The notes beneath the pieces are model-generated. The model was not told the origin of the DNA. It worked only from the letters and a program-made list of their open reading frames with translations, and ran no database searches. Below are positions 21,201 to 24,874 of a stretch of DNA of 64,000 nt, piece by piece; position 1 is the first letter of the stretch; every line of letters starts with the position of its first letter. The position numbers and the translations under genes were made by a program. This DNA is from Amphiscolops sp. MND2022 (lineage: Eukaryota). The stretch is from contig OZ076409.1 of the NCBI GenBank assembly GCA_964187785.1, positions 78,928,001 through 78,992,000 of the forward strand. The letters are read 5' to 3'.

Positions 21201-24200
21201 CAAGAACAGGCTGATATCCTCAGGCTAGTCGGAACTGAACTTCACGAGCACCAGTCAACGATGCGTGGCCTGAAGGATTTACATCTAGCTCAAAACAGAG
21301 ATGTTCACCTCCTAGCGCTGAAGAAGCTCATGAAGAACGAGCCATTGGATGACGCTTTGTTCCCCGAGGATGTGCAAGATTTTGCCAAACGGTACTTTCA
21401 TCAAAAAAAGACCTACTGTTCCTGAACCAAAATGACATTTTATGTGTCAATTACATTCCGCAGCAACGCGCGATGCACGTACGACCGTGTATGATTGTCA
21501 TGCCCCAGCTCTACCAGCATGAAATCTTGTACAGAGCGCATGATGAATCAGGACACCAAGGCGTTGGCAAAGTATTGGCGAGGATACAAGAGCGCCACAC
21601 TTGGCCAGGCATCAAGCGTGATGTCGTCAATCATATTAAGCATTGCTTAACATGCCAACAGACGAAGCATCCCGCTGGGAATCCCTGTTACCCCCTACAG
21701 AGTATCAACAGCAGCAATTTTAATAATCTGGTGCAATTTGACCATTTGAAATTGTGCAAGACAACGTCAGGAAATAATGGATTGCTAGTCATCATCGACC
21801 ATTTTACCAAGTTTGCAGAGGCAATCCCATGTGCACACGATGAATATGACGCACAGACGACTGCAAAGATTATCCTAAACAAATGGTTCGCAAGACATGG
21901 CACTCCTGCCAGAATGCAGTCTGACAACGCCACCAATTTCACTGCCGAAATTGCTCAAGAATTGATGAAAGCTTCGCAAGTAACCAAGGTAACGTCTACT
22001 CCAGCTCATCCGAGAGACAACGGTCTAGTGGAACGCCAGAACCGAACGTTGCTTACCCTGCTCAGAGTTTACACGTCACGCAGGATGCTTGACTGGGATG
22101 AGCACATAGACGGAGTCTTGGGTGCCTACAATTCGACCAGACATGCAACAACAGGATTTTCCTCGTACATGCTCCAACATGGCGCGGAAAAGTCCATTCC
22201 GCTCTCATTCATATACCCAGAATTCGCAGCACGAGAGTTCGAATCCAAAGGAGAATTCGTAGAGCACCTACTTGCTAGACAACAAGAAATCCACGAGCTT
22301 GTCCGCCGAAATACTCATCAAGCGCAAGTACGACAAAAACAGAAGTTCGACAGACATTTGAAGGCAAAAACTCATGCCGTGGGTGATGCCGTTTGGGTTT
22401 TTTGCCATATAATTCCCAAGGGTGGTACCCGCAAACTTCTGCGTGCCTGGCGTGGACCTCACAAGGTCACGGATGTGTTGCAAGATGGAAGATTATATGT
22501 GCTAGATACAGGTCAAAAAGTTCATTTTGAGCGTCTGAAGAAGCATGTGCCAGCACCATGGGATTGGGCAGCACATCAACCCTTTGGGTTGGACCAGAAT
22601 GTCGCCATCATTGCAGATCCGTACGTGGAAGAGAGCAATGAGGAGATAACGTCAGACACATCCCGTGACTCATTCCTTCCAGAACAGCTGCCGGAAGCAT
22701 TGTTCGAAATGGAACCAACCGCGCCTGTCCCACCGCGCACGATCCAGACGCGCACTCAATCTGCTTTGGAACAAGGAATCCCACGTAGACGATTTAGTCA
22801 CTTCGGATATCCGTCTGAATCTGACTCTGACCGAGAATCCATGAATCAACCCATTGAAGAAGAACAACAACCAGTTGTTTATCCCGAACTCGATGACTTG
22901 GAACCGCTATACTCAGACCAAGAAGAAGTCTTGCCAAAACCACTACCAAGTCTGATACCCTCACCATCAGGAACGTCCGCACCATTACTATCGAACCCAG
23001 CTTTAACCGACACATTGAGCAATTTCCCACTGTTCAGTTCTCGAGCTGCTAGCTCGGTAGGACTATAACTTGCCGAAGAAGTTGAACCCCAAGAAGGAAC
23101 TGACAGGGAAATACAAGAACCCAAGCAAAGTATGGAAGCATTACCCCCATCAGGAAGAATCGCAAATAGAAGAGGAAGACCAAGAGGCAGATCTCAAGGT
23201 CGTAGAAGAGGAAGTGTCACTTCATCAAGTCAAGCCCTTACAAGAACTAGCAGACCATATACCAGATCAAGAGGCCGAGTAAGAATCAGAGCTCAGTCTA
23301 GAACCTTGGAACGTGCAATGACACTACCCAACATTGCGGAAAGCACGTCACCAGAGCAACGACAAGCGGAACAATTAAACCCCCCACGAGCCGCACCTTA
23401 TCAGCTACGACGCAATAGAGTACCTAGATACAGGTGTGGAACCTGTGGTTCCCGTAACTGCAGCTGTGTCAACCTAATCAAAGGGAGACCACCGGACCAA
23501 CGATTGGCCCGGGGAGACGACGCCTCTGCCCCTGCCTTGGCTGACACCGAGACGTTCGAGGACCATGCACAACACACTATCCGGTCCATACAAGCTGAGG
23601 ATCAGGATATTCCACGAGTACACCATATCGTAATAACAATAGAAAAGACCTACTCGAGCGTCGGACCAGGAGTGATCCCTCCGATGGAAACCACACTCAA
23701 AGCTATGCAAGGAACGTCACCCTCAGACTGTCCCACCTATCGGTTCAAGGAGTGGACGTGGCACGAAAAGAGTGGGCTAGAATTCACGTTAGCCGCTATC
23801 ATTCCCCCACTCCCACCATCGATGGTGTTTGTAAAAATAGAACCAACAGACACGAAAGTAGCAATGGTACGCTGTATCACCGCGCAGAAGCTATGGCAAC
23901 AATACGGTGTGACTTCACCTCCTGGAGATGTGTATCATCCAACGACAGGATGGTGGCTACTAGTCACTTCTCTGGACGAGACATCCCCAGTGACTCCACG
24001 AACACTATTGATTTGCTTAGAGAACTTGCGCACACTAGTGGAGTTCGATGACACACTTTGTTTCCACCTAGCAGACATCTATCGCGGAAAATTCCTTAGT
24101 CAACATTGGTTGCAGCTACTAGCTATCACTTTCTGTCGACAAGCCAGAATACGTCTATTGGACAAATACACCTATACGTTCGAGAACCCAGTGACTGTGC

Positions 24201-24874
24201 TTGAAGCACTTTCCGTAGTTCATGATTGGTCTTGCACGAATTTGGGAGACAGACCCTTACGCAGGACAGTATGGCAAGACCGAAAAGCCATTTTAGATCA
24301 TCTCACGCCAAGACAAGACAATCAAAGCACTGTCACGGGAAAACTGCTGACGACCCACCCCAAATTCAAGCCGAACTACCTGTCATGGATTTCCTACGAA
24401 GAAACCGACATTCTTCAAGCCCGTGGTACCGTGGCGATATGCTGTCCAGCAGATTTGTTCTCATATTCAGCAATGGCACGTTACATCATCCGAGAATATG
24501 GTCAGGAGGAAATTTTCCGACTACGACCAACTGTGGGAAAAGCAATACACCTAGCTAGATCATTAAATGCGCCGTGGAATAACGAAATGTTTCTAATATT
24601 CACAAGAGCCTCTAACAAGCATCCTATTCTACATGATGTGCTACATCTGTGCCTGACTGACCTGGTACAGAAGCTTACACGAGCACAGATTACCCGAATC
24701 CACCTTCCTATCCATGATCCTGAAAGGTCAATCAACTTGCTACCAGCTTGGTATTCAATGTTGAGAGATCATTTCATCGACTCGAACATCGACATAGTTC
24801 TCCATGATAGGGTGTACGTGTCAATTGCATCTGTGAGAACATACCCTGATCAAGTCAAGCATAAGCTAGACTAA
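15228..24874 (+). pseudogene. gag-pol polyprotein (~3200 aa ancestrally), broken by a few lesions
   Basis: ORFs 15228-17336, 17270-17824, 17824-20016, 19815-21425, 21473-23068 and 23132-24874 can be rejoined by small indels and one in-frame TAA. Motifs: CFNCGDPSHFVADC, CVNCGHTGHVASDC, protease IDTGS...LLGRNFL, RT YIDD (19998), RNase H DTDAS...KLE...VDN, integrase H-H-C-C and D-D-E. Confidence 0.93.
23825..24810 (+). other. Two tandem degenerate TARG1/Poa1p-like macrodomains at the pol C-terminus
   Basis: ISYEETDILQARGTVAICCPADL..SAMA..IIREYG...G.A..L...MFLIFTR...HP..LHLCLTDL...ITRIHLP...W..ML.DHF.DSNIDIVL aligns by eye with the TARG1/OARD1 macrodomain pattern. A weaker upstream copy reads AMVRCI...GDV...WLLVT...LLICLENL. 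Confidence 0.65.

Follow-up and report, generated by a model that had tools for sequence, protein, structure and literature searches.

Tandem TARG1-type pseudo-macrodomains fused to a Ty3/Gypsy integrase: a candidate tethering tail in a family of giant retrotransposons

A Ty3/Gypsy LTR element of about 18 kb carries, downstream of its integrase, two mutually homologous macrodomains of the TARG1 class. Computational analysis shows that both are fused to the integrase and that both have lost the catalytic Lys and Asp and the GxG loop throughout the family. The element lies in a 64,000-nucleotide stretch of Amphiscolops sp. MND2022 DNA (the window), where a 601-aa frame forms the C-terminal end of its Gag-Pol (Table 1). 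The fold is kept, but the residues that bind or cut ADP-ribose are replaced, which suggests repurposing. Our main reading, to which we assign a probability of roughly 45%, is that the module gives the integrase a tail without catalytic activity that tethers it or binds host factors.

Table 1. Features of the element, with positions in the window.
Feature	Position	Strand	Basis or remark
5' LTR copy	12027..12294	+	268-nt direct repeat; shared part only, true 3' boundary uncertain
Gag (two CCHC knuckles), protease, RT, RNase H	15207..21425	+	Pfam; frameshifted in this copy
Integrase (H2C2 finger, DDE core, C-terminal domain) and first part of acidic/Pro/Ser-rich tail	21353..23065	+	PF17921, PF00665
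In-frame stop TAA	23066..23068	+	Stop of this copy, not family-conserved
Arg/Ser-rich low-complexity tract	23156..23302	+	Sequence
Y-x-L-R-x-x-R-x-P-[RK]-Y-x-CxxCx4CxC	23399..23467	+	Candidate nucleosome acidic-patch anchor and four-Cys metal site
N-terminal beta/alpha extension	23609..23806	+	Same confident model as unit 1; outside matched range
Unit 1, TARG1-type pseudo-macrodomain, shortened	23816..24166	+	Structure match, homology to unit 2
Strand and two helices, then low-confidence linker to unit 2	24167..24304	+	Model
Unit 2, full-length TARG1-type pseudo-macrodomain	24371..24811	+	Structure match, pocket counts
Tail motif H-D-R-V-Y-V-S-I, polyprotein end	24803..24826	+	Columns except D and Y kept in at least 41 of 47-48 rows
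Second long gene (ORF2)	25065..29392	+	One frameshift and one stop here; 1277-1429 aa in relatives
3' LTR copy	29880..30147	+	Repeat match; purine-rich tract just before

The two LTR copies are 98.9% identical and enclose gag-pol, and TGTAAC occurs near the start of the 5' copy. The best PDB matches of the RT/RNase H region were 4ol8 (E 8.9e-42) and the Ty3 Gag-Pol structure 7q5b (E 1.7e-41). Together with the domain order PR-RT-RNase H-IN, the Ty3-like RT places the element in Ty3/Gypsy. Its integrase occupies a 571-aa frame (21353-23068) with Pfam matches to Integrase_H2C2 (E 2e-17) and rve (E 2.7e-8). We rejected chromovirus membership, as macro folds sit at the integrase C-terminus in place of a chromodomain; no Chromo match was found by Pfam at E<=0.5 in the relatives P0113, P0160 and P0205. 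ORF2 is shared with five relatives (54-99% identity) and had no useful Pfam or PDB profile match. Its identification as an envelope gene was not supported either, as each protein has one or two moderate hydrophobic peaks.

The first-pass annotation had described a single in-frame TAA after which the pol frame continues for about 600 aa, and had read this as a fusion provided that the stop was not common to all copies. The frame does run on for 601 aa, to a TAA at 24872-24874, and 106 of 151 relatives are continuous through the stop position, including eight at 93% identity or more. The integrase core and unit 2 lie within one ORF in 49 of the 151, and open fused frames occur in four identity classes of relatives. 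Among long relatives, the same ORF contains the integrase zinc finger in 55/55 and the core in 54/55; the search for longer relatives favours fused forms and biases these fusion counts. Another 45 of the 151 do not cover the stop position; 15 begin at the stop or a little beyond it, nine of these at the Met that corresponds to 23318, and they may be damaged copies or may represent a product made on its own. The TAA is not the only damage to this copy, which also shows frame changes near 17267, 17815, 19845-19884 and 21362-21410 relative to the natural relative P0205. In view of the continuity of close relatives and these other lesions, we rejected programmed readthrough of the TAA; the same data led us to reject the view that the family normally encodes the module as a separate ORF. 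In-frame fusion to the integrase is the usual state among relatives.

The macro fold surfaced only through profiles and structural models. Pfam gave no match for the 601-aa frame and also missed the module in all 26 members of the set A1 (best E 0.046, to unrelated families), and a single-sequence PDB search of the frame returned nothing meaningful, its matches being limited to chorismate mutase (E 0.9 and 0.2). When profiles were compared with PDB sequences, TARG1 accounted for all five matches at E<=10 (E 0.25-0.35), and for five of six with a second profile (E 0.043-0.057). The predicted structure of unit 2 aligned with TARG1 over 139 residues (Z 16.2, rmsd 2.8; Foldseek E 1.6e-8, TM 0.83 by target length, rmsd 2.3). 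That of unit 1 aligned with 4j5r over 116 residues of the 141-residue TARG1 chain (Z 12.1, rmsd 2.9), reaching Z 10.8 in a wide structure search and a Foldseek E of 3.1e-5. About 25 residues of the macro fold are missing from unit 1, which is wrapped by about 110 extra conserved residues. The N-terminal extension has pLDDT 85-94 per 10-residue block and the conserved columns EKT, FKEWT and GLEFTL; searched within the unit-1 model rather than folded alone, it gave no fold match of its own. Comparison of unit 1 with unit 2 shows them to be homologous, with an hhalign probability of 93.75 and a pairwise E of 1.8e-7. In the ESM Atlas, unit 2 scored highest with unnamed phage clusters (0.90-0.91), followed by a Macro-14% cluster (0.89), and unit 1 reached at most 0.84; these are leads only.

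By their models, both units have the alpha/beta/alpha fold of the macrodomain superfamily. The two similar alpha/beta units that had been outlined at 23825-24170 and 24386-24810 agree with the modelled boundaries. The description of them as TARG1/Poa1p-like held for TARG1, whereas Poa1p fits more loosely (Z 12.0 against 16.2 for unit 2, and 9.6 against 12.1 for unit 1).

Residues of the ADP-ribose pocket were counted in rows dereplicated at 90%. Between T83 and D125, unit 2 aligns with TARG1 in a gap-free register. Its K84 position is Arg in 76/80 rows and Lys in 1/80, Asp never occupies the D125 position (0/59), and D-x-E-R stands in place of the GxG loop (G121 to D in 59/61, G123 to E in 53/60, L124 to R in 56/59). 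In addition, G43 is replaced by Ala in 70/74. Unit 1 has Ala or Ser at the K84 position (76/80), Asp in the GxG loop (66/73), Tyr or Phe at G123 (66/72) and Asp125 in a single row of 70. The TARG1 pattern TKx(30,35)Px[IL]GxGxD (from the available text of PMC6397177) matched 0/416 proteins. In human TARG1, according to the part of PMC5928194 available, G123E abolishes ADP-ribose binding and activity, and Glu at either G43 or G123 abolishes binding. From the sequences, TARG1-type hydrolysis is very probably absent, with little or no ADP-ribose binding, and the phosphate site is probably occupied by the D-x-E-R loop itself, paired with the Arg that replaces K84. YSAMA in place of GAGIA, FTRA in place of ITKK and DPERS in place of GCGLD, which had been taken as signs of a degenerate pocket, were located as described. 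The alignments extend that degeneracy to the whole family, which points to a conserved state and not to decay of this copy, and they support the proposal of inactive macro-folds.

The module diverges rapidly while keeping its fold. Identity between subfamilies is 83% in RT and 44-45% in the module, which diverges about four times faster; the units align without gaps at this level, and the adjacent linker falls to 13%. Both units are kept in six groups, down to 28% identity. Scans for related loci beyond these relatives yielded no usable locus: pattern matches were confirmed in 0/155 cases in JGI metagenomes and in 1/7 in IMG/VR, the latter with no locus recovered. Such fast divergence fits host conflict and tethering alike. 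The pseudo-macrodomains might then act on a host protein of restriction or silencing, by binding it or as a decoy; candidates are PARP/ZAP-like, small-RNA and chromatin-silencing factors, and the protease might first release the module. Viral macrodomains counter PARP defence (PMC7232374, in the part available), retroelements have repeatedly captured ADP-ribose-related domains (PMC12477816 and PMC4977317, likewise in part), and the closest viral structures come largely from RNA-virus polyproteins. However, known antagonism of this kind needs ADP-ribose binding or hydrolysis, for which the residues are replaced here, and we regard such a role as doubtful.

The adenine side of the unit 2 pocket appears better preserved. 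D20 is kept in 62/68 rows, T83 in 58/80 and P118 in 51/61, the L21/F22 positions remain hydrophobic, and the Y150 position is His in 46/48, with the N-terminal register set by the C33/G43 spacing. In TARG1 these positions form the adenosine site (available text of PMC6397177). Their retention fits residual nucleotide binding, and a catalytically dead unit 2 might bind adenosine ligands (terminal ADP-ribose, PAR, AMP or oligo-A) and steer integration to ADP-ribosylated or damaged chromatin. The acidic residues in the GxG loop and the replacements of G43 and G123 argue against this, D20 may be retained for structural reasons, and unit 1 is an incomplete fold. We therefore consider such an altered reader unlikely.

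On average, unit 1 carries a net charge of -1.3 (206 rows) and unit 2 one of -2.9 (189 rows). This neutral-to-acidic charge weighs against the idea that the pair, like the SARS-unique domain (SUD), consists of tandem macro folds blind to ADP-ribose that bind RNA or DNA, for packaging or in the integration complex. SUD is itself a pair of ADP-ribose-blind folds that bind G-quadruplexes (PMC2674928, in part), TARG1 G123E retains RNA binding (PMC5928194, in part), and an Arg-rich tract lies upstream. But SUD relies on surface lysines, and both units are nearer to TARG1 than to SUD (for unit 1, Z 12.1 against 7.4). This role appears decidedly unlikely.

Conserved residues around the unit 2 pocket could alternatively form a different active site: C279 (62/70), D282 (61/71), R333, D370, E372 and R373, the last four as frequent as the Arg, Asp, Glu and Arg substitutions given above (76/80, 59/61, 53/60 and 56/59). 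D-x-x-R is also found in unit 1 despite its shortened pocket, which points to a structural role, and a search for a precedent found none, so that a new enzyme is very improbable. That the module is a functionless passenger or decaying relic, as the several breaks in this copy might suggest, is hardly credible and already largely refuted by the open fused frames, the gap-free units and dozens of near-invariant columns across groups that are 28-48% identical.

We return to the tethering tail with the linker between integrase and unit 1, which is 36% identical between subfamilies. Its Arg/Ser-rich tract and CxxCx4CxC motif (CGTCGSRNCSC, 23435-23467) were found where the first-pass annotation had placed them. 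The tract is likely disordered and could contribute to nuclear import or nucleic-acid contact. Between distant subfamilies, the Y-x-L-R/Cys motif is 68-72% identical. Y-x-L-R stands at a fixed offset in 161/167 proteins and 57/63 distinct segments, all from related elements, so that these counts are not independent; it occurred anywhere in the tract in 323 of 10000 shuffles. The conserved Tyr and Arg have the i, i+3 spacing of the invariant Tyr537 and Arg540 of PFV Gag (PMC12125541, in part). Of the three uses that the first-pass annotation had proposed for the module (targeting, nucleic-acid binding and defence antagonism), Y-x-L-R, which it had not mentioned, weighs toward targeting. Four residues are weak evidence for an anchor.

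The tethering tail would have originated when the element acquired a TARG1-class macrodomain and then duplicated it. Both copies would have been retained as non-catalytic folds that end a single Gag-Pol of about 3000 aa, after the integrase. Moving with the integrase, the tail would tether the integration complex: Y-x-L-R would contact the acidic patch of the nucleosome as an arginine anchor, in the style of foamy-virus Gag. A chromatin factor of the host would be bound by a platform made up of the four-Cys cluster and both pseudo-macrodomains, located where other Gypsy integrases carry chromo or Tudor domains. The element's protease might release the tail from the integrase. In its most specific form, which we offer tentatively, this would be a new class of targeting tail with three parts: a nucleosome anchor of the foamy type, a four-Cys knuckle, and a pseudo-macrodomain derived from TARG1 and present twice, in which an intrinsic acidic loop, a natural G123E, blocks the phosphate site. 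Such a tail would recognise a protein or mark of host chromatin in place of ADP-ribose and direct insertion.

Few LTR elements have known determinants of integration, and most fused integrase modules reported to date are chromo or Tudor readers. Poa1p-like macrodomains are annotated in insect Gypsy polyproteins in databases, which lowers our estimate of novelty. Among the papers listed in searches of open full text, which do not extend to subscription journals, supplements or Repbase/GyDB annotations, none described a Gypsy integrase bearing macrodomains in tandem or in disabled form. The available text of PMC12859917, PMC7729036, PMC13524379 and PMC5408684 contains nothing on macrodomains in retrotransposons; the supplements of PMC12477816, itself available in part, contain lists of TE domains that may be relevant to novelty. 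A conserved, disabled TARG1 pair on an integrase, invisible to Pfam, is a new candidate class of targeting module, and if the reading is true, it would be the first case of macrodomain-guided integration, for giant retrotransposons. The family is also a natural experiment in macrodomain repurposing, having fixed the same Gly-to-Glu change that is used in the laboratory against ADP-ribose binding. As the units are small and confidently modelled, their binding and structure are open to direct testing.

Among known systems, TARG1/OARD1 (C6orf130; 4J5R, 4J5S, 2LGR) was the top structural match for both units, followed by DarG and Poa1p. Unit 2 shares with it the T83-D125 register, with T83 and P118, and by the spacing-based N-terminal register also D20. 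The element's units differ from TARG1 in the replaced K84, D125 and GxG loop, in being 13-16% identical to it, in their tandem arrangement and integrase fusion, and in the shortened, wrapped form of unit 1. SUD-N/M likewise has two tandem macro folds without ADP-ribose function in a polyprotein (PMC2674928, in part), whereas the present units are TARG1-class rather than coronavirus X-domain-like, are not basic and are borne by a retroelement. Foamy virus Gag has a chromatin-binding sequence with Tyr and Arg three apart and a basic tract, also in a retroelement polyprotein (PMC12125541 and PMC9040877, in part); the element's motif differs in sitting after the integrase and running into a four-Cys cluster, and the likeness is one of spacing alone. 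C-terminal reader fusions recur in Gypsy integrases, including chromo and Tudor domains in Ectocarpus, and in these elements and the chromoviruses a host-type domain was likewise captured after the integrase in Pol (available text of PMC12477816). Here the captured domain is of the macro class and lies about 350 aa past the integrase C-terminal domain, and its targeting role is putative. ADP-ribose-related folds captured by retroelements also include NADAR in Ectocarpus Gypsy Pol (same text) and macro-domain ORFs in fish epsilon-like ERVs (PMC4977317, in part, citing Basta et al. 2009). Together with these captures, the present family suggests a recurring link between ADP-ribosylation and retrotransposons.

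The tail under study, a 601-aa frame behind an in-frame TAA, closes the Gag-Pol of an ~18-kb LTR retrotransposon. Because its pol order is protease, RT, RNase H and integrase, and the RT/RNase H part finds its best matches in 4ol8 and in 7q5b, a Ty3 polyprotein, we assigned the element to Ty3/Gypsy. Compared with a natural 3178-aa relative, gag-pol of the window copy has four frame changes and one stop, the TAA itself. These breaks and those in the second gene may reflect decay or assembly errors.

Features of the element and its neighbours, in window positions
Feature	Position	Strand	Remarks
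LTR repeats	12027-12294 and 29880-30147		268 nt, 98.9% identical; bound the ~18-kb element
Leader before gag	12295-15206		~2.9 kb; no ORF of at least 150 aa; 80% conserved in second element
In-frame TAA	23066-23068		
Tail frame	23069-24874		601 aa
Y-x-L-R/Cys motif	23399-23467		ends in the Cys cluster
Unit 1	23816-24166		
Unit 2	24371-24811		
Second gene	25065-29392		one frameshift and one stop in the window copy
Related element	44342-48654	minus	~4.3 kb; terminal repeats of ~730 nt with 94% identity
Two other decayed LTR elements	4715-9848 and 31141-36797		flank the ~18-kb element; short repeats; RT/RNase H or protease remnants

Relatives were sought with residues 230-601 of the tail frame. 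In the 330-1052 aa range, 97 of 4018 candidates were hits, the protein from the window itself included; in the 1053-3005 aa range, 55 of 2406 were. The long relatives, mostly single ORFs of ~2998 aa, carried the integrase zinc finger in 55 of 55 cases and the core in 54, in a search that favours fused forms and returned many near-identical copies. Alignment was continuous over the stop position in 106 of 151 relatives (identity ≥93%, n=8; 80-93%, n=52; 55-80%, n=27; <55%, n=19), and 49 ran from the integrase core through the end of unit 2. The stop position was not spanned by 45, and 15 start at it or shortly beyond and may be broken copies. The TAA is therefore not conserved in all copies, and the tail is usually fused in-frame to the integrase, as the first-pass annotation had proposed, rather than forming a separate ORF.

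The tail frame had no Pfam match and no single-sequence PDB match. Profile searches weakly retrieved TARG1 and almost nothing else (5/5 matches with the first profile, 5/6 with the second). A model of 23609-24871 reached pLDDT 80, with unit 2 as the best-matching region; TARG1 ranked first (Foldseek E 1.6e-8; Z 16.2, with 139 residues aligned at rmsd 2.8), and DarG (Z 14.8) and Poa1p (Z 12.0) came after it. Modelled with its flanks, unit 1 reached pLDDT 92 and again found TARG1 first (Z 10.8 in the wide search; E 3.1e-5, Z 12.1 over 116 residues). It is ~25 residues short of a full macro fold, and its confident model also takes in flanks of ~65 residues on the N-terminal and ~45 on the C-terminal side, which matched no fold. 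The two similar alpha/beta units noticed by eye are homologous (probability 93.75), and their predicted fold places the module in the macro superfamily, TARG1-like by structure. Both units share D-x-x-R in place of the TARG1 glycine loop, so we infer that the duplication followed the loop change. The donor may have been a host gene or an RNA virus.

In TARG1, D20, L21, F22, I44, P118 and Y150 form the adenosine site, the GxG loop the diphosphate site, and K84 and D125 are catalytic (PMC6397177). The HMMER register from T83 to D125 is gap-free. Pocket counts came from 399 domain hits in 416 proteins, using rows that cover half a unit, dereplicated at 90%, with gaps excluded; the 81 rows for unit 2 and 83 for unit 1 include decayed fragments and share descent. 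Unit 2 has Arg for K84 (76/80), Ala for G43 (70/74), Asp for G121 (59/61), Glu for G123 (53/60) and Arg for L124 (56/59), while D125 is Pro or Ser in 52/59 and Asp in none. In the hhalign register, unit 1 has Ala/Ser for K84 (76/80), Tyr/Phe for G123 (66/72) and Gly for D125 (62/70). The degenerate pocket suspected from one copy is thus family-wide. The published TARG1 pattern is matched by 0/416 proteins, and the module, TARG1-like in structure, lacks the sequence hallmarks of the TARG1 hydrolase. In human TARG1, G123E and G43E cost the protein its ADP-ribose binding and activity but not its RNA binding (PMC5928194).

Upstream, the Cys cluster CGTCGSRNCSC ends a longer motif, Y-x-L-R-x-x-R-x-P-[RK]-Y-x-CxxCx4CxC, 68-72% identical between subfamilies, in which Cys invariance was set by construction of the search. 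Y-x-L-R occurred at a fixed offset in 161/167 proteins and 57/63 distinct segments; in shuffled controls, 323/10000 had it anywhere in the tract. In foamy-virus Gag, invariant Tyr537 and Arg540 contact the nucleosome acidic patch and thereby set integration sites (PMC12125541). Their spacing, the one feature compared, equals that in Y-x-L-R, a candidate nucleosome anchor by this analogy.

We tentatively favour, at roughly 45%, a tail that stays with the integrase and would tether the integration complex, with Y-x-L-R as its nucleosome anchor and a host factor bound by the pseudo-macrodomains. Antagonism of host defence is an unlikely reading. Somewhat less likely still is an adenosine/PAR reader. 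In its favour, and against a complete loss of ADP-ribose binding, the adenosine subsite may survive in unit 2, since D20 (62/68), P118 (51/61) and His at Y150 (46/48) persist, in an N-terminal register that rests on spacing. SUD-like nucleic-acid binding ranks slightly lower; the module is neutral to acidic in net charge. A new active site is improbable. Between the comparison proteins P0113 and P0160, from distant subfamilies, identity is 83% in RT, 73% in the integrase core, 44% and 45% in units 1 and 2 (both gap-free), 36% in the long linker and 13% in the short one. The 176 rows covering both units leave 29 at 90%, in six groups down to 28% identity. The module is retained yet diverges about four times faster than RT; that it is a passenger is hardly credible.

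The window also holds fragments of other retroelements. The LTR copies agree over 268 nt only, against ~730 nt in the related element, and another insertion near 30308-30609 may have cut the 3' copy. The leader may contain structured RNA; the related element shares 1.65 kb of it at 80% identity, retains only a 23-codon scrap of the tail from just past the Cys motif, and is probably a deleted or non-autonomous family member. Between protease and RT, ~18850-19200 had no Pfam match and by eye resembles a degenerate dUTPase fold. P0113 and another relative, P0205, are ~90% alike in Pol and differ by ~180 aa, mostly in Gag, where by eye the shorter seems to lack a coiled-coil stretch. The second gene has five relatives of 1277-1429 aa (54-99% identity, in clusters of 3-342 members), and Pfam and PDB profile searches gave no useful match. 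By eye, we take its part near 26480-27200 to resemble an SGNH/GDSL esterase core. Some LTR elements of rotifers carry an extra ORF of GDSL type (PMC5408684).

The tandem macro tail on the integrase is real and conserved: its fusion, fold and residue replacements are shown computationally, while the functional readings above are proposals. Retroelements already offer precedent for ADP-ribose-related domains, in the NADAR domain of an Ectocarpus Gypsy (PMC12477816) and macro-domain ORFs in fish ERVs (PMC4977317); within the limited full-text literature searched, we found no description of tandem pseudo-macrodomains on a Gypsy integrase. The chromo and Tudor fusions reported for Gypsy integrases (PMC12477816) are likewise captured C-terminal accessories, which the tail would resemble in function. 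SUD is also described as a tandem macro pair without ADP-ribose function (PMC2674928), a loss that we infer for the element's module from its residues.
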